A stretch of 42,971 nt of DNA, taken from the IMG/VR virus record IMGVR_UViG_2579778686_000011; one strand, 5' to 3'. Both the position numbers and the translations under genes were made by a program. Under the pieces are notes generated by a model, which did not search any database, was not told the DNA's origin, and saw only the letters and a list, made by a program, of their open reading frames with translations. This DNA is from a virus (Duplodnaviria; Heunggongvirae; Uroviricota; Caudoviricetes). Each line of letters begins with the position of its first letter. Position 1 is the first letter of the stretch. Positions 1-42,022 of this stretch are shown here, piece by piece.

Positions 1-755
1 TTCAGTAAATACAGGGTTACTGATAGTGACACCAATTTCAAAACAACCTTCAGACGTATTAACGTTTGGTAATAACGTTTCCATTATCGCGTCCTCAACA
101 ATGAATTTTGTGATGCGGTGCCTGGTGCCTCCAGGTGACGTTAACCAGTTAACAATTAACGCCGGATACAGAGAATCCACCCATAACACTGTTTTTGGTT
201 TTAACTGTTCCGCGTGCGCTCAGCCGCATTCACCGCATCACAAAATTCACTTTAAAAAGGGCGGCAGAGCAGTCACGGAGTAAAACTGATACCGCCAAAC
301 GTCACCAGAAAATTGATAACAGAGGGCGTTGCAGCGGGGTTGTCACTTAAGCGTATGGTCAACCTGACAACTCGGTGTCCTCAACGGGGAAGGAATAACC
401 CCGCCATACTTACCGCCGCGCCATTTCGCGGGTTGCCACAACCGGAAGCGCACGGTCGAATTAAATTTAACGACACCGTACAGTGAGACGAACTTCGCCG
501 TGCGCTTTCGTGTTGTATGCCTGCTTTTAACCACGTCAGGCGAGGTGGTATCCTTCTTATCCCGAATAACCAAGAAGGAAATCTATATGACTAAAGAAGA
601 ATTTGTCTCTTATATTTTTGATAAAACGGTTGAAATGTATGCCGCTACTTACGGGTCCTGTAATCCTCTGAATAAACCAGAGGGGAAAGATGATTTCGAC
701 AAAATTTACCGCTTCTTGGAGGACCGCTATATCAAAAGGTTAGAGGACGCAGGGA

Positions 756-6165: not shown

Positions 6166-6376
6166 TTTCACATTGGCGAGGTAACGGTAGTTAAGTAGAA
6201 TGGCTGCGGGTGCTTGAGGCTATCTGCCTCGGGCATGAACACCAACGGCAGATAGAGAAAAGCCCCAGTTAACATTACGCGTCCTGCAAGACGCTTAACA
6301 TTAATCTGAGGCCAATTTCATGCTAGACACATGTAGGTTAGCCTCTTACGTGCCGAAAGGCAAGGAGAAGCAGGCT

Positions 6377-6532
6377 ATGAAGCAGCAAAAGGCGATGTTA
6401 ATCGCCCTGATCGTCATCTGTTTAACCGTCATAGTGACGGCACTGGTAACGAGGAAAGACCTCTGCGAGGTACGAATCCGAACCGGGCAGACGGAGGTCG
6501 CTGTCTTCACAGCTTACGAACCTGAGGAGTAA
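6377..6532 (+). CDS. hok: Hok/Gef-family type I toxin
   Basis: MKQQKAMLIALIVICLTVIVTALVTRKDLCEVRIRTGQTEVAVFTAYEPEE is collinear with Hok, including the TRK-LCE-R core; AAGGAGA RBS; in-frame upstream ATG at 6320 gives a mok-like leader; hok-like 5' UTR and 3' fold-back elements present. Confidence 0.85.
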   Translation: MKQQKAMLIALIVICLTVIVTALVTRKDLCEVRIRTGQTEVAVFTAYEPEE

Positions 6533-8779: not shown

Positions 8780-9601
8780 ATGAAACTGGAAGATTTACCG
8801 AAATACTACTCCCCAAAATCCCCTGGCCTGACCGATGCATCGGCCTCAACGTCAAAAGATGCGCTGAGTATCACTGATGTGATGGCCGCGCAGGGCATGA
8901 CACAGAATCGGGCTGAGATGGGTTTTTCTGCGTTCCTGGGGAAAATGGGCATCAGTATGAATGACAGGGCGCGGGCAACAGAATTACTGGCAGATTATGC
9001 ACTCAGTCGGTGCGATCGTGTGGCGGCGTTGAGAAAACTTCCGGCAGAAATAAAACCGGTAGTGATGCGCATTATGGCTTCGTACGCTTTTGAGGATTAT
9101 GCCCGCAGCGCAGCGAGTAAAAAGCAGTGCCCTTGTTGCTATGGGGAAAAATTTATTGAAAGCATAGTTTTTACAAACAAGGTCCAGTATCCGGATGGTA
9201 AGCCGCCGGTATGGGCAAAGTGTACGAAAGGTGTGTATCCGTCTTACTGGGAAGAATGGAAAAAAGTCAGGGAGGTGGTAAAAGTTGCCTGTCCGGAGTG
9301 TGGCGGAAAGGGTGAGGTTTCCACCGCCTGTAAGGATTGCCGTGGGCGTGGTGTCGCCATTCATCGTGAAGAGTCGGTAAAACGTGGTATGCCTGTTGTC
9401 AGAGACTGCCAGCGTTGTGGTGGTCGTGGCTATGAAAGACTACCATCAACGGAGGCATTTAATGCTATATGCGAGGTGACAAACCAGATAACACGCGCGT
9501 CATGGGAAAAAACAGTTAAGAAATTCTATGATGCGCTGGTGACCCGGTTTGATATTGAAGAAGCATGGGCTGAGCGGCAGTTAAAAAAGGTAACTAGGTA
9601 A
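8780..9601 (+). CDS. Late-gene antiterminator Q-like protein
   Basis: 273 aa with several CxxC pairs (CPCC, CPECGGKG, CKDCRGRG, CQRCGGRG); sits immediately upstream of a late-promoter-like region and tRNAs. Confidence 0.7.
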   Translation: MKLEDLPKYYSPKSPGLTDASASTSKDALSITDVMAAQGMTQNRAEMGFSAFLGKMGISMNDRARATELLADYALSRCDRVAALRKLPAEIKPVVMRIMASYAFEDYARSAASKKQCPCCYGEKFIESIVFTNKVQYPDGKPPVWAKCTKGVYPSYWEEWKKVREVVKVACPECGGKGEVSTACKDCRGRGVAIHREESVKRGMPVVRDCQRCGGRGYERLPSTEAFNAICEVTNQITRASWEKTVKKFYDALVTRFDIEEAWAERQLKKVTR

Positions 9602-9606
9602 CAAGG

Positions 9607-9634
9607 TTGATTTTTCCGGAATCTGTGGTAAATT
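9607..9634 (+). promoter_or_regulatory. Candidate late promoter pR'-like (-35 TTGATT, 16 bp spacer, -10 TAAATT)
   Basis: Hexamers read directly, just downstream of the Q-like gene. Confidence 0.4.
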
Positions 9635-9682
9635 CGTCATAATGATGGGCTTTTTATGCCTGACGTTAGAAGAGTTTCTACA

Positions 9683-9704
9683 ACCCGCCGCCGAGCGGGT
9701 TTTT
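9683..9704 (+). terminator. Candidate tR'-like terminator
   Basis: CCCGC...GCGGG hairpin followed by TTTTTTATT, about 50 nt downstream of the candidate promoter. Confidence 0.45.
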
Positions 9705-9744
9705 TATTGCGGAATTAATTACGGACCGTTATTATTCTGCTCCC

Positions 9745-9820
9745 GGCCCTTTAGCTCAGTGGTGAGAGCGAGCGACTCATAATCGCCAGGTCGCTGGTTC
9801 AAATCCAGCAAGGGCCACCA
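9745..9820 (+). tRNA. tRNA with CAT anticodon (Met or lysidine-type Ile2), 76 nt with encoded CCA
   Basis: Acceptor stem GGCCCTT/AAGGGCC, GTTCAAATC T-loop, anticodon loop CTCATAA. Confidence 0.85.
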
Positions 9821-9920
9821 TCACAAACCGCCATTAGCTTATCAGGAAGAGCAGACGACACGATAACAGGGTTGTTGGTGCGGGGGCGGGTCCCCGATGG
9901 CGGTCCATTATCGGTATTCA

Positions 9921-9997
9921 GCGTTGTTAGCTCAGCCGGACAGAGCAATTGCCTTCTAAGCAATCGGTCACTGGTTCGAATCCAGTACAGCGCGCCA
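9921..9997 (+). tRNA. tRNA-Arg (anticodon TCT), 77 nt with encoded CCA
   Basis: Acceptor stem GCGTTGT/ACAGCGC, GGTTCGAATCC T-arm, anticodon stem ATTGC/GCAAT with loop CTTCTAA. Confidence 0.85.
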
Positions 9998-10107
9998 TAT
10001 TCATTCTTCCAGATTCCTTCCGGCAGAGCCTTATACTGGAATATACCTGGCTCAGGATATTGTTGAAAACATAATATGTTTGTCAAAAATAAAAGTTCTG
10101 TTAAGTA

Positions 10108-10461
10108 TTGATTGAGTGTTTGTTATACGGTCTAATGGTTTTTTCAGCATTAAATATTTATCATTCATATGGTGTGGGTAGAGTGAATATTGATGAGGCG
10201 TCGGGGTGTTTCATCCTTAGGCAGCGTATTGATATAGTCAATGCAGAACGAGCAAAGGCCTTCAGCCGTTTGACAGTTTTGTTCTGTACTCCTGATCGTC
10301 TTTCGGGAAGAGACGTTATTATTCTGAATAGTGATGCTATACAGAGGGTTTGCGATGAGTTCATGGTGGCTAATTCAGAATTATTTGCTCTTGTTCAGGA
10401 GTACAACAGAATAGCCAGGACCTGTGGTATGGATGAACTTCGGATTACTCATCTGGGGTAG
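10108..10461 (+). CDS. Hypothetical protein (117 aa; start uncertain)
   Basis: Open frame in the slot between the tRNAs and the esterase gene; no recognisable motif. Confidence 0.3.
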   Translation: MIECLLYGLMVFSALNIYHSYGVGRVNIDEASGCFILRQRIDIVNAERAKAFSRLTVLFCTPDRLSGRDVIILNSDAIQRVCDEFMVANSELFALVQEYNRIARTCGMDELRITHLG

Positions 10462-10851
10462 ATACATATCTGGATTATCACCGGTTACGGTAAAAAGTGA
10501 TTGCTTACTGTTTTTGTGAATGGCATTGCAGCAGCCGGATAATGTCAGTGCTGGCTGACGGTGTGCTGGTGGCGGGTGTGGTGGTTGCTGCTTTCCCGTT
10601 GCTGAAAAAGAAAACGCCAGACTGTTAGCCGGGTATCAGTTAGCGGGAGAAATTTTTAAATACTTCACAATTCAGGCGGTTGACTGTTGTCTGGTTTGCG
10701 GGGAGTTTGTTAAAAGAAACTGGCATGGTGAATCCCCCTGTGCGGAGGGGCAATCAGCGAGTAGGTATATGGGATAATCGCGGATTCAGGTGCTGGTACT
10801 GAATTCACCGGGAGGCACCCGGCACCATGCAATGGCACATAGCGCCACTCT

Positions 10852-10880
10852 CCAGCCCCTCTCCGGAGGGGCTGTTTATA
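10852..10880 (+). terminator. Rho-independent terminator
   Basis: Perfect 8 bp stem AGCCCCTC-TCCG-GAGGGGCT followed by GTTTATATTGATTTT. Confidence 0.6.
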
Positions 10881-10908
10881 TTGATTTTGTCAGATGTGAG
10901 TAAACTCC

Positions 10909-11244
10909 TTATGGACTTTGTTGTTTTAGCCCATAAGGACATATTTGCAGAGTGCAACGGTTATTAAAGCATTCATTCAATACGTTATCTGTATTTGTAG
11001 GGCATTCCTGGCTGTTTTTGATTAAATTCCAGAATGTTTTATTGAATGGTACTACGTTGTAAATGGTTACAGGCAGCACTTTGTTATTGAGCATGATGCC
11101 TGTGTGAGTCAGTGTAAATATACTTTCAGGAGGTAAGAAAGCATCCGATTGATACCAGATTATTAATTTTATTTTACTCCATATGACTGAAAAAGATATT
11201 CCGCATGATGGCTGGATAACTGTATCAATCACAATCCACTTCAT
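10909..11244 (-). CDS. Hypothetical protein (111 aa) in AT-rich DNA, opposite strand to the late operon
   Basis: Open frame only; Cys-containing, no motif recognised. Confidence 0.3.
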
Positions 11245-11504
11245 TTAGTTTCCTTGTTTATGCCTTGCTGGTGATGTTCTGAAAAGTATAAATGATATTT
11301 TTGATTGTAAACCATAGAGCAGAATTATTTTTCTGATGTTGTTTATTGTTTATTTAAATGCAGGGTGGTTTATATCTCGTCTTGTAGTTTATCCATGCAT
11401 ATCTGCTTGATGATGAGGTTTTTAATTAAGGTATGGTTTTGTGTTTTTTCTGTATTACATGTCAGGTATTTTAAAGAATCATTTTTCAGATGGTGGAAAG
11501 AACC

Positions 11505-13358
11505 ATGGCATTTAAACACTATGATGTTGTCAGGGCGGCGTCGCCGTCAGATCTTGCGGAAAAGCTGACACATAAACTGAAAGAGGGCTGGCAGCCGTTT
11601 GGTAGTCCGGTGGCCATAACCCCTTATACCCTGATGCAGGCGATTGCAGCAGAAGGTGATGTGGTCGTCAGTGGTGCAACTGAGCCGGAGTGGTACTACG
11701 TCATCGTACTGGCCGGGCAGTCCAATGCCATGGCTTACGGTGAAGGGCTTCCGCTTCCGGATTCATACGATGCGCCCCATCCGCGCATTAAGCAACTGGC
11801 CCGTCGTAACACAGTGACTCCCGGTGGTGAAGTATGCGTATTTAACGACATCATTCCTGCTGACCATTGTCTGCATGATGTTCAGGATATGAGTACGATT
11901 AACCATCCCCGGGCTGACCTGAGCAAAGGGCAGTACGGCTGTGTCGGACAGGGCTTACATATTGCCAAAAAACTGCTTCCGTATATCCCTAATAACGCGG
12001 GGATCCTGCTGGTACCATGCTGTCGTGGTGGTTCGGCATTCACCCAGGGCACGGAGGGGACATTCAGCGAGTCCACGGGGGCCAGTCAGGATTCGGCTCG
12101 CTGGGGAGTGGGTAAGCCGTTATATCAGGATCTGCTTTTCCGCACGAAGGCAGCATTGCAGAAAAACCCGAAAAACGTTTTGCTGGCGATATGCTGGATG
12201 CAGGGGGAATTCGATATGACGAATGCCAGTTACGCCCAGCAGCCAGCAGCATTTCTTGCAATGGTACAGCAGTTCCGTGCTGACCTTGCCGGGCTGGCGG
12301 CGCAGTGTCACGGTGGAAGTCCGGCATCAGTCCCCTGGATTTGTGGCGACACGACATACGCGTGGAAACAAGAACACGGTACGCAATATGAAGTGGTATA
12401 TGGTGCATATAAAGGTAAAGAATCCCAGCAGATTTATTTTGTTCCCTTTATGACCGATGGTAGCGGAGTTAATACACCGACAAACAACCCGTCAGAAGAT
12501 CCTGATATTGTCGGGTCTGGTTATTACGGTTCGGCATCCCGAACGAACAAAAACTGGGTATCATCAAATCGCCCGACGCATTTCAGCTCATGGGCGCGTC
12601 GTGGCATTATTCCCGATCGTATGGCAACCGCTATTCTGAACGCAGCCGGGCGCACCTCAGCCTTCATCAGTGGTAAGGCACCGGAAATCAAACCCTCGCC
12701 CGGCGGCGACACGCCATCGGGTCCGTCTGCAGATACGTCCGTTCGCACAATCTCCCTGCTGCCGACAGCCGGAGAGGCTGCTGCGCAGGGCTGGAGCATT
12801 AAGAATGGCGGAATTCAGTTGTCAGATGGTGTATTTAAGATCACCAAGCAGAGCAATAAAGCCTGGTCCCTGACGCGCCCGGTGGATGACGCAGTCTCCC
12901 TGCTGACACGGGGTGGCAGACTGAGCTGTAAGTTTCGACTGTCAGGCGCACTGACCAACAACCAGTTCGGTCTGGGAATTTATCTGTATACCGATGTAGC
13001 GTTACCTGACGTCGTGGCGATGACCGGGACTGGTAACCCGTTCCTGATGTCGTTCTTCACCCAGACCACAGACGGCAAACTGAATCTGATGCATCACAAG
13101 AAAGCCGGAAACACAAAGTTGGGCGAGTTCGGGAATTACAGTAACGACTGGCAGACGCTGGAGCTGGTGTTCACCGCCGGCAGTGCCACGGTTACTCCGA
13201 AACTGAATGGAGTGGCTGGCCCGGCATTCCAGGTCATAAAAGACAGTCTGACAGTGGGACTAAATGCACTGACGCTGACGGATATTACCAAAAATGCAAC
13301 GTATGGCGTTGAGATAGAAAGTCTGGTGCTGGAGATAAATGCACCGGCATCATCATAA
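11505..13358 (+). CDS. nanS: Prophage sialate O-acetylesterase NanS-p-like protein (SASA/SGNH esterase N-domain plus C-terminal domain)
   Basis: [14 protein letters not shown] matches the GQSN esterase motif; size and position (downstream of the tRNAs, upstream of lysis genes) match NanS-p of Stx-type phages; alternative start ATG 11490. Confidence 0.75.
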
Positions 13359-14097: not shown

Positions 14098-14631
14098 ATG
14101 AGCGCAAAAATCAAATACGGCCTGTCAGCTGCTGTTCTGGCGCTGATTGCTGCAGGCGCGTCTGCTCCTCAAATACTTGACCAGTTTCTGGATGAAAAAG
14201 AGGGTAACCACACTACGGCATACCGCGATGGTTCCGGTTTATGGACCATCTGTCGTGGTGCCACAATGGTGGATGGTAAGCCCGTCATACCGGGAATGAA
14301 GCTGTCGAAGGAAAAATGCGACCAGGTTAACGCTATTGAACGTGATAAGGCGCTGGCATGGGTGGAGCGCAATATTAAAGTACCACTGACCGAACCACAG
14401 AAAGCGGGTATAGCGTCATTCTGTCCCTATAACATTGGCCCCGGTAAGTGTTTCCCGTCGACGTTTTATAAGCGGCTGAATGCCGGTGATCGTAAGGGCG
14501 CATGCGAGGCGATTCGCTGGTGGATAAAAGATGGTGGGCACGATTGCCGCATACGTTCAAATAACTGCTATGGACAGGTTATTCGTCGTGACCAGGAAAG
14601 CGCATTAGCCTGTTGGGGGATAGATCAGTGA
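14098..14631 (+). CDS. R: SAR endolysin (lysozyme-like, signal-anchor-release type)
   Basis: N-terminal weakly hydrophobic Ala/Gly-rich segment [15 protein letters not shown] followed by a lysozyme-like core ([18 protein letters not shown]). Confidence 0.85.
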
Positions 14632-15086
14632 GCAGAGTCGCAGCGATTATTTATACTCTGGTTATCTGCACCATCGTCTGCCTGTCGTGGGCGGTCAATC
14701 ATTACCGTGATAACGCCATCGCCTACAAAGAGCAGCGCGATAACAAGGCCAGTGAACTGGAGAAGGCGAACGCCACCATCGCTGACATGCGGAAGCGTCA
14801 ACGTGATGTAGCAGAACTCGACGCAAGATACACAAAGGAGCTTGCTGATGCTAACGCGACTATCGAAAGTCTCCGTGCTGATGTTTCTGCTGGGCGTAAG
14901 CGCCTGCAAGTCGCCGCCACCTGTGCAAAGTCAACGACCGGAGCCAGCGGCATGGGCGATGGAGAAAGCCTAGGACTTACAGCAGATGCTGAACTCAATT
15001 ATTACCGTCTCCGAAGTGGAATCGACAAGATAACCGCGCAGGTCAACTACCTGCAGGAGTACATCAGGACGCAGTGCTTAAAATAA
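14628..15086 (+). CDS. Rz: i-spanin Rz
   Basis: GTG start overlapping the endolysin stop; N-terminal TM helix then a coiled-coil-rich periplasmic domain; Rz1 embedded in the +1 frame. Confidence 0.75.
14848..14973 (+). CDS. Rz1: o-spanin Rz1 (embedded lipoprotein, 41 aa)
   Basis: Hand translation [41 protein letters not shown]: lipobox LGVSAC, Pro-rich mature part, AAAGGAG RBS 7 nt upstream, entirely inside Rz. Confidence 0.75.
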
Positions 15087-15502: not shown

Positions 15503-16123
15503 ATGAAAGATCAAGATGTTAGGTTCGCGGTGCATCATAAGCTTTTGAAAGAATCGCATTTAGATCCAGACTGCCTTGTGGTCGATGAATTTTCCATATC
15601 CCTTGGCGCCAGTAGAGCAGACATTGCTGTAATAAATGGTGTTATACACGGGTACGAGCTCAAAAGTGAATATGACTCTTTGGAGCGTTTGCCTCTTCAA
15701 ATCAAGCATTATTCTTCTGTAATGGACAAGGTTACTCTTGTCGTAGCTGAGAAACATCTTGAGGGAGCATTAAAGTTAATCCCAGGTTGGTGGGGCGTTA
15801 AAACGGTTTCTGTTGGGCCAAAAGGCGCCATTCTTATAAAGCACATGCGTGGAGAAAAGCTTAATCGAAACCATGACACATTGATGCTCGCTCAATTGCT
15901 TTGGAAAGATGAATGTATCGACGTACTTGAACGATGGGGCTATTCCAAAGGAATCAAAAGCAAGCCCCGATTTGAGTTATGGAATATTATTGCGGAAAAT
16001 ATTCCAATAGCGAATCTCAGGCTTGAAGTCAGAACAGCCTTAAAGAAACGCGTAGGCTGGAAAGTTAAGGCTTGGCAGGCTGAGTCTGCGCCAACCAATA
16101 AAGCTGTTTCACGACTAACGTAA
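15503..16123 (+). CDS. PD-(D/E)xK-like nuclease-fold protein (206 aa), cargo gene
   Basis: Spacing of acidic and lysine residues (VVDEF ... RADIAVINGVIHGYELKS) fits a restriction-endonuclease-like D...D...ExK core; strong RBS; AT-rich context. Confidence 0.6.
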   Translation: MKDQDVRFAVHHKLLKESHLDPDCLVVDEFSISLGASRADIAVINGVIHGYELKSEYDSLERLPLQIKHYSSVMDKVTLVVAEKHLEGALKLIPGWWGVKTVSVGPKGAILIKHMRGEKLNRNHDTLMLAQLLWKDECIDVLERWGYSKGIKSKPRFELWNIIAENIPIANLRLEVRTALKKRVGWKVKAWQAESAPTNKAVSRLT

Positions 16124-17132
16124 TATGGTGCGTATGTGCAACTTTACGCCATTCTTTAGAGCCGCCAGATTTGTTAGCGCCTAATGATCTTTGGTAAATG
16201 TAATCATCCCCCCAACTAAATTTGGAACCAAAGACTTGATACTCTGGCGAACTAACAAGGGTAGTACATAAGTTTTTAGTTTGGCCCCATCCATTTCCTT
16301 TAACTGCGGTACCTTTTACAAAGATCCATGAGGTATCGTTCGAATATCTCACTGAGACATACTGAGACATGAAGCGTGGGTCTACGCTCGTAATGGTAGA
16401 GCTAGCGGTGGGATAATCACTAAAACTTGGCGTTCTTCCATTGCTAAAATTCTGTACTACGTGCATCCAAAGATCGTATTCATGGCGCGGAATATGATGA
16501 ACTTGATGTTGCGGTATCCCTGCCTGTGATGCTGGGTATGCGGTTGAAGATAAAATCAAGTTTCTCCACGGAGCTTGGCCTGATAATGTGTTGACCATGC
16601 TTAATGCTTGTTGTTTTAAACTATCAGTTGCGTTTTGAATATCTCCAAAATCAATGATTACATCAATTAAACTAGGATGAATATTTAAGTGGTTAACCAG
16701 ACTTGTGAATTGGTGCCATGTCTGGGGGGTGATAGATATAGCGAGCCCATTGATTAAGTTGCGTTGAACAGCATGTATATAGTTTGTTGAATATGCGGGA
16801 GAAACAACAGGGATAATTTCCTTACCATTTACTCTAGCATCTTGGATACACATATCTAGAGGATGATGGCGGCTCGAACCATGTTTATCTAAATATTTAA
16901 CATCCAGCAAAACAGGACGATTGGCTTTCCAGGATGCCGCAAGGTTAATACCGAAGTCAGATAAGTAAGAACTCAAACTCTTCTTGTAGCATTCGTTTTC
17001 ATAATCCCAGTCTATGTCTGGAATGGTAATGATCGGAGTAAAACCAGAGAGCGTAGTTTGATCTAAAAGCATCAGAGATTCATATTCAGCAGGCTTCCAT
17101 TTCAGCTGTGGATAATATTGATGTTGACTCAT
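16065..17132 (-). CDS. Uncharacterised 355 aa protein convergent with, and overlapping, the PD-(D/E)xK-like gene
   Basis: AAGGAG RBS 5 nt before ATG 17132; N-terminal motif YYPQLKWKPAEYESLMLL; 3' ends of the two genes overlap by 59 bp. Confidence 0.65.
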   Translation of the reverse strand: MSQHQYYPQLKWKPAEYESLMLLDQTTLSGFTPIITIPDIDWDYENECYKKSLSSYLSDFGINLAASWKANRPVLLDVKYLDKHGSSRHHPLDMCIQDARVNGKEIIPVVSPAYSTNYIHAVQRNLINGLAISITPQTWHQFTSLVNHLNIHPSLIDVIIDFGDIQNATDSLKQQALSMVNTLSGQAPWRNLILSSTAYPASQAGIPQHQVHHIPRHEYDLWMHVVQNFSNGRTPSFSDYPTASSTITSVDPRFMSQYVSVRYSNDTSWIFVKGTAVKGNGWGQTKNLCTTLVSSPEYQVFGSKFSWGDDYIYQRSLGANKSGGSKEWRKVAHTHHITLVVKQLYWLAQTQPAKP

Positions 17133-17339: not shown

Positions 17340-17520
17340 GATCCAGACCGTTACGGGGCGGCGACCTCGCGGTTTTTCACTATTTATGAAAATTTTTCAG
17401 GGAAAATCGTGTCGGTACTTCTCGAATATAACTTTTTGTTTTTTTTAATATTGCATTCATAAATGTCCGACATGAAAGTGTCCGAAAATGCCTTTTTCTG
17501 GCGTTTTCATGTCGGGCCTT
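17340..17520. other. cos: cos site: cosN cohesive-end sequence GGGCGGCGACCT at 17356-17367 with downstream cosB-like repeats
   Basis: ...GTTACG|GGGCGGCGACCTCGCGG...TATTTATGAAAATTTT closely matches the lambda left end; repeated CATGTCGG/CCGACATG elements between cosN and Nu1. Confidence 0.8.
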
Positions 17521-17542
17521 GTATTTGATAATGGGTTGTTCT

Positions 17543-18091
17543 ATGAAGGTTAATAAAAAGAGGCTTGCCGAAATTTTTAACGTGGACCCGCGGACGATTG
17601 AACGCTGGCAGTCTCAGGGGCTCCCTTGCGTCTCCAAAGGCAGTAAGGGCATTGAATCTGTATTTGATACTGCCATGGCAATTCAGTGGTATGCGCAGAG
17701 GGAAACTGATATCGAAAACGAAAAGCTCCGCAAAGAACTGGCCGATTTGCGTGCGGCAGCGGAGTCAGATTTACAACCCGGCACCATTGACTATGAACGC
17801 TACCGGCTCACAAAAGCGCAGGCAGATGCGCAGGAACTGAAAAATGCCCGTGAAGACGGAGTGGTGCTGGAAACTGAACTGTTTACCTTTATTCTGCAAC
17901 GTGTGGCACAGGAGATTTCGGGGATACTTGTGCGTGTGCCGTTGACATTACAGCGTAAATATCCGGACATTTCACCATCACACCTTGATGTGGTGAAAAC
18001 TGAAATCGCGAAAGCCTCCAATGTTGCAGCTAAGGCCGGTGAAAACGTGGGCGGGTGGATCGATGATTTCAGACGCACAGAAGGCAGCTAA
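17543..18091 (+). CDS. nu1: Terminase small subunit
   Basis: [28 protein letters not shown]...[47 protein letters not shown] is collinear with lambda gpNu1. Confidence 0.9.
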
Positions 18092-40715: not shown

Positions 40716-41299
40716 TGGCATTCAGAATGAGTGAACAAGCACGGACCATAAAAATTTATAATCTGCTGGCCGGAACTAATGAATTTATTGGTGAAGGTGA
40801 CGCATATATTCCGCCTCATACAGGTCTGCCAGCAAACAGTACCGATATTGCACCACCAGATATTCCTGCTGGCTTTGTGGCTGTTTTCAACAGTGATGAG
40901 GCATCGTGGCATCTCGTTGAAGACCATCGGGGTAAAACGGTTTATGACGTAGCGTCAGGGGACGAGTTATTTATTTCTGAACTCGGTCCGTTACCGGAAA
41001 ATGTTACCTGGTTATCGCCGGAAGGGGAGTTTCAGAAGTGGAACGGCACAGCCTGGGTGAAGGATACGGAAGCAGAAAAACTGTTCCGGATCCGGGAGGC
41101 GGAAGAAACAAAAAACAACCTGATGCAGGTAGCCAGTGAGCATATTGCGCCGCTTCAGGATGCTGCAGATCTGGAAATTGCAACGGAGGAAGAAACCTCA
41201 TTGCTGGAAGCCTGGAAAAAGTATCGGGTATTGCTGAACCGTGTTGATACATCAACTGCACCTGATATTGAGTGGCCTGTAAATCCTGTCAGGGAGTAA
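40715..41299 (+). CDS. tfa: Tail fibre assembly protein Tfa
   Basis: 194 aa immediately after stf; N-terminus [39 protein letters not shown] as in lambdoid Tfa. Confidence 0.88.
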
Positions 41300-41353: not shown

Positions 41354-42022
41354 CTATTTTTTCCCTGAAGCGGAAAACATTACTACAGTACCTTGAACCT
41401 TGGTTTTAACATTCTCGAAATGCTCTGAGAGTATGTGTGTTAAGCCTTCTTCGGAATCTTTTGTGTTTGAAAAGATGCCTTTCTGATTGTAAATGCGCAT
41501 CAGTTTTTGACCGAAGCTATTGTGCACAACTCCATCGCCAAGAATTGTGGCTCCGTATAGAGTTCCATCGTCAGTTAAGGCCTGCGCCGCATTGCGTATT
41601 ACACAGCTTTTTGTAGATATATTTCCAGGCAGGCAGTGAAGAAGGTAAAACATGGAAATGGAATCAAATTGACCATGTAACGCCGCGGGATAAGGTTCAA
41701 AAACATCATGGCTAATTTTATGTTTAATTTTTGATTCCCCAGCCCTTGTAGATGCCGCGTTCAGGCTAGCTTCGTTCAAATCCATTAAAGATATCAGACT
41801 ACTCTCAGGTACGTGAGTAAGGTAAAACCCAGTTCCAACACCAATATCCAGATGGTTGTTACCTACATGTTCCAGAAAGTGTGGAAGAAGGTGTTCCTTT
41901 GTAGGACATCCCCATGCAAGCCGATTTGATACTCCCAAAACCCACCAGTCATAAAGCTTTAGGGTAAGTGGTGTGTAAATTTTAGCCCCATCATCTGTGT
42001 TTTTTTTCATTGATTTCACCAT
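41354..42022 (-). CDS. Class I SAM-dependent methyltransferase (cargo gene)
   Basis: 222 aa with motif I LDIGVGTGF; opposite strand to the tail genes; flanked by the direct repeats. Confidence 0.75.
   Translation of the reverse strand: MVKSMKKNTDDGAKIYTPLTLKLYDWWVLGVSNRLAWGCPTKEHLLPHFLEHVGNNHLDIGVGTGFYLTHVPESSLISLMDLNEASLNAASTRAGESKIKHKISHDVFEPYPAALHGQFDSISMFYLLHCLPGNISTKSCVIRNAAQALTDDGTLYGATILGDGVVHNSFGQKLMRIYNQKGIFSNTKDSEEGLTHILSEHFENVKTKVQGTVVMFSASGKK

Follow-up and report, generated by a model that had tools for sequence, protein, structure and literature searches.

The window analysed here is the whole of the IMG/VR virus record IMGVR_UViG_2579778686_000011 (Caudoviricetes), 42,971 nucleotides (nt) in length, and the locus under study is the interval running from its late antiterminator gene Q to the lysis genes. 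This interval is very probably the accessory-gene region of a lambdoid Escherichia coli prophage near-identical to the potB prophage of the urinary-tract strain CFT073. A previous reading made from the letters alone, hereafter the sequence-only reading, had likened the interval to the late region of Shiga toxin (Stx)-converting phages and had proposed that the position of the toxin genes stxAB, the toxin slot, is occupied by uncharacterised open reading frames (ORFs). All the features that it listed (ORFs, tRNAs, Q, hairpin, NanS-p and AT-rich DNA) were recovered in place, and their order, namely Q, the pR'/tR' promoter and terminator pair, an ileZ-type tRNA, an argO-type tRNA, the slot and nanS-p, is indeed the Stx-phage order. 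The slot and its immediate surroundings comprise the following features.

9921..9997, plus strand: tRNA-Arg(UCU) of the argO type, left anchor of the slot (ARAGORN, TCT anticodon; Rfam, 68 bits).
10006..10664, plus strand: cargo cassette equivalent to stx2AB, 659 bp here, 1368 bp in the Stx2a phage, and 57 bp and cargo-free in phage phi296.
10183..10461, plus strand: orf92, the conserved core of a 117 amino acid (aa) ORF at 10108-10461, with a GTG start and 92 aa (phrog_2873/4827 family).
10497..10628, plus strand: 43 aa DUF3927 small membrane protein (PF13064, E 1.3e-26, 92.7 bits against a gathering threshold of 25; phrog_1470).
10694..10883, plus strand: STnc100 small RNA (sRNA; RF02076), right anchor of the slot (cmscan, 132.4 bits against a gathering threshold of 47, full model 1-206).
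10909..11244, minus strand: iraL, an IraM-family RssB anti-adaptor of 111 aa (NF007393, "anti-adapter protein IraM", 162 bits against a cutoff of 121).
11245..11377, minus strand: iraL 5' untranslated region and sigma-70 promoter (transcript start 11277; -10 hexamer TATACT at 11290-11285; -35-like TTTACA at 11311-11306).

The slot was defined by blastn breakpoints against an Stx2a phage (LC567837, Stx2_EH2246; locus L005) and the stx-negative phage phi296 (L006). Window positions 9705-10005, the tRNA block, align with L005 3501-3800, and positions 10665-12638 align with L005 5169-7121. The genes stx2A and stx2B, at L005 3883-5123, fall between the two aligned blocks, so that the 1368 bp stx2AB cassette corresponds to window positions 10006-10664 only (659 bp). 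In the flanks, the tRNA block is 88% identical to that of Stx2 phages, with identity ending at 10005; on the Stx2 phage side, homology reaches to 82 nt before stx2A and resumes 45 nt after stx2B. In phi296 the same two flanks lie 57 bp apart and the slot holds no cargo. On these alignments the cassette occupies exactly the stx2AB position, bounded by tRNA-Arg(UCU) on the left and STnc100 on the right. No convincing direct or inverted repeats, sought as a sign of site-specific insertion, flank the cassette. The toxin genes themselves were said to be absent, and this was borne out, as a tblastn search of the whole window with Stx2A and Stx2B as queries gave a best E of 0.26; the stxA and stxB genes that define a Shiga-toxin-converting phage were thus not found.

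The map redraws the contents of the slot. The sequence-only reading had placed in it the 117 aa ORF, a strong terminator, and a minus-strand 111 aa ORF in AT-rich DNA. The 117 aa ORF does lie inside, but the Stx2a phage has equivalents, located beyond stx2B, of everything to the right of position 10665, including the hairpin, the AT-rich spacer, the minus-strand ORF and nanS-p. The low GC content (0.32-0.34 across 10900-11500 vs about 0.52 in the flanks) belongs to DNA beyond the slot. The 43 aa DUF3927 ORF, which is within it, had been omitted. Comparison of the slot with stx-positive and stx-negative relatives, proposed at that time as the way to decide between a toxin never acquired, lost or replaced, brought out alternative cassettes at fixed junctions; the pattern of a deletion scar was not seen.

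The terminator is not a stand-alone item of the slot but the 3' end of a catalogued sRNA, STnc100. The RNA scores well above the gathering threshold over its full model, and its 3' hairpin (stem 10853-10874, 9 pairs, 7 of them G-C, followed by a T-rich tail) is the structure previously described as a terminator. Related loci carry it as well: the score is 154 bits for the Stx2a phage copy, which lies 75 nt beyond stx2B, and 158 bits for that of phi296, beside the cargo-free slot, and it is also present in CFT073. An STnc100 75 nt downstream of stx2 has been reported, and related copies have been detected by quantitative PCR in vesicles of Shiga toxin-producing E. coli (PMC12370729). At the equivalent of 10713-10838 (minus strand), the NCBI Prokaryotic Genome Annotation Pipeline (PGAP) annotates in elppa4 and CFT073 a partial "hypothetical protein" pseudogene lying wholly inside STnc100, and this partial ORF is probably an annotation artefact.

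Nor is the 111 aa ORF an uncharacterised product. Sequence searching identified it as 100% identical to CFT073 WP_000871291.1, encoded by the potB prophage; the CFT073 gene is named iraL, and its protein was shown by experiment to bind RssB and stabilise RpoS (PMC4045071). The 5' end of iraL mRNA was mapped in that work by rapid amplification of cDNA ends (5'-RACE) to ACATCACCAGCAAGGCATAAACAAGGAAACCA. The window contains this published sequence a single time (minus strand, 11277-11246; 1 mismatch, 0 chance matches), and the TATACT -10 hexamer stands 7 nt upstream of the transcript start. The region from -100 to +33 is identical to that of CFT073 at 130 of 133 positions. Thus the gene has both a sequence above the curated family cutoff and an iraL-type promoter and transcript start. 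Regulation through a PhoP box, as for K-12 iraM, was considered and set aside: the sequence upstream of iraL could not be aligned with that upstream of K-12 iraM, and different regulation has been reported (PMC4045071). Since IraL is encoded on the minus strand and has a mapped promoter of its own, it does not count as late-expressed cargo. In the Stx2a phage a homologue is found together with stx2AB; the gene is present in CFT073 and absent from phi296 and from the prophage of E. coli STEC1585 (L004). In sum, iraL is an optional module outside the slot, antisense to late transcription, and no alternative to stx.

What remains within the slot is the 659 bp cassette, with orf92 and the DUF3927 gene. 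The 117 aa ORF matches phrog_2873 (E 1.7e-70) and, weakly, phrog_4827; the 92 aa form also matches this family pair (E 2.5e-58), and among the aligned members 11 of 11 match phrog_2873 and 9 of 11 match phrog_4827. Searches of Pfam, NCBIfam and PADLOC gave no match for orf92, and a sequence profile search of the PDB returned nothing below E 0.1. A 56%-identical homologue is found in another prophage, in the same late-region position upstream of nanS-p. Against this homologue, codons 26-117 have a ratio of nonsynonymous to synonymous substitution rates (dN/dS) of 0.27, with 24, 22 and 42 differences at codon positions 1, 2 and 3, and the frame is kept at about 32% nucleotide divergence (88 of 276 sites). 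Codons 1-25, on the other hand, look non-coding (dN/dS 0.6; 11, 10 and 12 differences). The GTG at codon 26 is conserved in both sequences. A HMMER scan of 1.84 billion representatives yielded 21 family members, mostly of 91-95 aa and starting at the equivalent of codon 26; one member, too, is preceded by a Q-type gene and a tRNA. Among full-length copies from IMG/VR and the reference loci, orf92 is intact in 50 of 50, with 2.5 variable sites per 100 nt vs 5.7-5.9 in the adjacent spacers. In light of this sequence conservation, orf92 is treated here as a real gene under purifying selection, whose product of 92 aa probably starts at the GTG at 10183.

The 25 residues upstream of this GTG were considered as a signal sequence or membrane anchor; the idea was rejected, as they are unconserved, have no codon-position bias and are missing from all distant homologues. 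An AlphaFold2 model of orf92 is a confident antiparallel two-helix hairpin (pLDDT 88.7, from 11 sequences). The product is most probably, albeit with low confidence, a small cytoplasmic protein that would work by binding a partner protein. A promoter of its own was also sought for orf92, and the candidate was set aside: there is only a 9/12 consensus match at 10063-10090, and sites are no more numerous than in shuffled sequence.

The second gene of the cassette encodes a predicted single-helix membrane protein, labelled 'TciB-like' in PHROGs and annotated by PGAP as WP_000562553.1 in elppa4 and CFT073; a literature search on TciB and DUF3927 found nothing usable. The two genes assort independently: phage vB_EcoS-640R1 has DUF3927 without orf92, and the loci L003 and L004 have an orf92 homologue without DUF3927.

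The cassette is widespread. At a coverage of at least 80%, it is present in 1183 of 5426 complete E. coli genomes, about a fifth, and the whole 1.9 kb interval in 863 of the 5426; the best match is at least 95% identical in 1360 of 1391 cassette records, and phage mEp460_ev081 carries the cassette at 99.2% identity. In RefSeq complete genomes only its DUF3927 gene is annotated, while GenBank submissions give orf92 as "hypothetical protein" on at least 1000 contigs. A further filling is found in the STEC1585 prophage (L004 3041-6256), whose slot contains genes for a TolA-like protein and an AraC-type regulator, together with a methyltransferase fragment and an orf92 homologue that is unannotated. 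Four copies of STnc100 flank the cargo genes of this prophage, three of them in tandem directly before nanS-p, which suggests, from their placement, that STnc100 marks cassette boundaries.

Expression of the cassette would depend on the elements to its left, which are as follows.

8780..9601, plus strand: late-gene antiterminator Q, 273 aa (PF03589 'Antitermination protein Q', E 1.4e-54, 182.6 bits; phrog_127, phrog_25523).
9608..9635, plus strand: pR'-like late promoter candidate (TTGATT-16 nt-TGgTAAATT).
9682..9709, plus strand: tR'-like intrinsic terminator, end of a short leader transcript (stem 9682-9701, 7 pairs, then TTTTTATTG).
9745..9820, plus strand: tRNA with a CAT anticodon, ileZ type (ARAGORN; Rfam tRNA, 72.5 bits).
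9830..9906, plus strand: degenerate argN remnant, a pseudo-tRNA (alignment to argN of CFT073 and of the Stx2a phage).

The profile match of Q, which PGAP names 'antitermination protein' in near-identical DNA elsewhere, is accompanied by a promoter and terminator pair downstream, of which the promoter was read by eye only; it scores 8/12, under the threshold of the promoter scanner, and for this reason was unlisted by it. A terminator scan found 5 sites vs 2.1 expected by chance, a weak excess, yet both relevant terminators, the tR'-like one and the STnc100 hairpin, are supported independently by homology; in blastn, homology to Stx phages begins at 9705, just past the tR'-like hairpin. The leader between pR' and tR' (9637-9705, plus strand) gives a weak full-length match to Salmonella IsrK, at 18 bits and below threshold, consistent with an early-terminated late leader RNA like 6S, StxS or IsrK. 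The CAT-anticodon tRNA is called tRNA-Ile (tRNA-Ile2) by PGAP in identical DNA and ileZ in Stx-phage records. Between it and argO lies the middle member of the ileZ-argN-argO trio, with its anticodon-arm region scrambled; neither ARAGORN nor Rfam called a tRNA at 9830-9906.

The steps of late transcription proposed here follow the lambda/82/933W paradigm. After induction, Q would modify RNA polymerase at pR', and the polymerase would read through tR' and the STnc100 terminator. The late transcript would then carry, in order, the ileZ- and argO-type tRNAs, the cassette (10006-10664), STnc100, nanS-p and the lysis genes, all of which would be co-expressed. In the lysogen, iraL would be expressed independently from its own sigma-70 promoter, and IraL would bind the adaptor RssB, protect RpoS from ClpXP and raise RpoS during growth, as shown by experiment for the identical CFT073 protein (PMC4045071). 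The slot fillings, in turn, were most likely swapped through recombination within the conserved DNA on either side, the tRNA block and STnc100.

Alternative accounts of the slot have to be weighed against this picture. That the element is a former Stx phage which lost its toxin genes, with the interval as a deletion scar or decayed remnant, would fit the homology of the flanks to Stx2 phages almost up to the toxin genes on either side, and the degenerate argN does attest to some local decay. The 659 bp of the slot are, however, unrelated to stx, with no stx remnant detected by tblastn, and they contain a gene, orf92, under purifying selection; the same cassette is conserved at 98-99% in the 1183 genomes and in mEp460_ev081, and neither the Q module nor the remainder of the prophage is of the Stx2 phage type, both being of the CFT073 potB type. 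A former Stx phage reduced to such a scar or remnant is highly improbable. The view taken in the sequence-only reading, that the 117 aa and 111 aa ORFs are both uncharacterised toxin-slot cargo expressed at high level from the late promoter, has in its favour that both lie between the tRNAs and nanS-p and that the DNA of the 111 aa ORF is AT-rich, as is typical of acquired genes. It holds for the 117 aa ORF insofar as this ORF is uncharacterised, is on the plus strand and would lie in the late transcript. It fails for the 111 aa ORF, which is IraL, with a published function and transcript start, runs antisense to late transcription from its own promoter, and has a homologue that coexists with stx2AB; as an account of both ORFs it is scarcely credible.

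It could also be held that the 117 aa ORF is a chance frame, leaving the DUF3927 peptide as the sole real gene of the cassette and the remainder as non-coding spacer. The lack of a Pfam or NCBIfam match and the non-coding character of the first 25 codons speak for this, as do two observations considered below, the missing PGAP annotation and the want of an obvious ribosome-binding site. Codons 26-117 are nevertheless constrained, with the low dN/dS, the excess of third-position differences and the preserved frame described above; the 21 representatives are of conserved length, two PHROG families match, and the structural model reaches its high pLDDT from only 11 sequences. A chance frame is therefore quite improbable. 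The reading preferred here, that orf92 is a real gene of a cassette standing in the stx2AB position, can be extended to propose that the orf92 family is Q-dependent late cargo that alternates with stx at the argO/STnc100 slot, with a host-directed or phage-competition role and with STnc100 copies as recombination joints. This extension is tentative and, on balance, unlikely. Several points weigh against the main picture given above. The Q types differ, PF03589 and 273 aa here vs a Q of 126 aa in the compared Stx2a phage, and both the pR' assignment and the read-through are carried over from other lambdoid phages. No clear Shine-Dalgarno sequence precedes either the GTG at 10183 or the TTG at 10108, and PGAP leaves orf92 unannotated in RefSeq complete genomes. 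Fold searches with orf92 returned only generic coiled-coil and helical-hairpin matches, which makes the protein-binding role a guess.

To the right of the slot, past iraL, the prophage continues with nanS-p.

11490..13358, plus strand: NanS-p type sialate O-acetylesterase, 622 aa (DUF1737, SASA and DUF6645; phrog_143).

The protein has the NanS-p architecture (DUF1737, a SASA esterase domain and a C-terminal domain) and is encoded upstream of the holin; its enzymatic identity is predicted from this domain content. The gene is 72% identical in nucleotide sequence to yjhS/nanS-p of the Stx2a phage. A second cargo site is located at 15503-17132, between Rz (14613-15086) and the small terminase gene Nu1 (17519-18091). 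Its contents are a 355 aa Beta_protein on the minus strand (PF14350; PADLOC PD-Lambda-2_C) and, convergent with it, an ORF of 206 aa (PADLOC 'cll'), together a candidate module for anti-phage defence. Rfam matches elsewhere in the prophage are DicF (259-310, minus strand), a sok antitoxin beside a hok-type gene (6208-6382, plus strand) and IS009 near the end of the tail-fibre genes (41058-41256, plus strand). A 222 aa S-adenosylmethionine-dependent methyltransferase-like ORF (41354-42022, minus strand) is located downstream of the tail fibres, where the prophage has its distal end.

Taken together, the arrangement of the region is already known and very common, with orf92 as its only functionally uncharacterised item. 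Three of the four non-tRNA elements are already catalogued: IraL, which is experimentally characterised, STnc100 in Rfam and DUF3927 in Pfam. The results of use are an exact map of the slot, from tRNA-Arg(UCU) to STnc100, with at least four alternative fillings including a cargo-free state; a corrected likely start codon for a widespread hypothetical gene omitted by RefSeq; and the placement of the PGAP minus-strand partial ORF inside STnc100. Should orf92 prove to function on induction, stx would have in it a common counterpart that is not a toxin.

Among known systems, the closest is the CFT073 potB prophage. Aligned blocks of the window are 88-98% identical to it (97.4% for 9703-11731), the order Q, tRNAs, DUF3927, iraL (iraM family), esterase and holin is the same, IraL is identical, and the CFT073 orf92 is intact with two substitutions (E47A and C82S). 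The two differ in that an IS200C insertion, with an STnc490 RNA match, separates Q from the tRNAs in CFT073 (L008 21568-22159) and is missing from the window, and in that a CFT073 deletion (L008 24062-24408) spares only the DUF1737 start of nanS-p, whereas the window nanS-p is intact; conversely, argN is intact in CFT073 and degenerate here. The Stx2a phages (Stx2_EH2246, LC567837) share the order tRNAs, STnc100, minus-strand iraM-family gene and nanS-p, with 88% identity over the block of tRNAs and 72% over the stretch that runs from STnc100 into nanS-p, but have stx2AB (1368 bp) in place of orf92 and DUF3927 (659 bp), and carry between Q and the tRNAs a methylase gene and hypothetical genes that are missing in the window. 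The late-region order of a Shiga-toxin-converting phage (Q, pR'/tR', ileZ/argN/argO tRNAs, slot, nanS-p, lysis genes) is thus reproduced, albeit with a degenerate argN and a Q of another type. Within the IraM/IraL/RssC family, the protein is identical to the IraL that was studied, with matching promoter and transcript start, yet it is only 62% identical to K-12 IraM, as against 73% to the product of the iraM gene adjoining stx2B in the Stx2a phage. Finally, STnc100 is related to PasD, and Pas sRNA genes adjoin sialate esterase genes in lambdoid prophages (bioRxiv 10.64898/2026.05.13.724894); the window copy has this family likeness, being full-length with its terminator hairpin and positioned between the toxin slot and the gene for the sialate esterase, just upstream of the latter.

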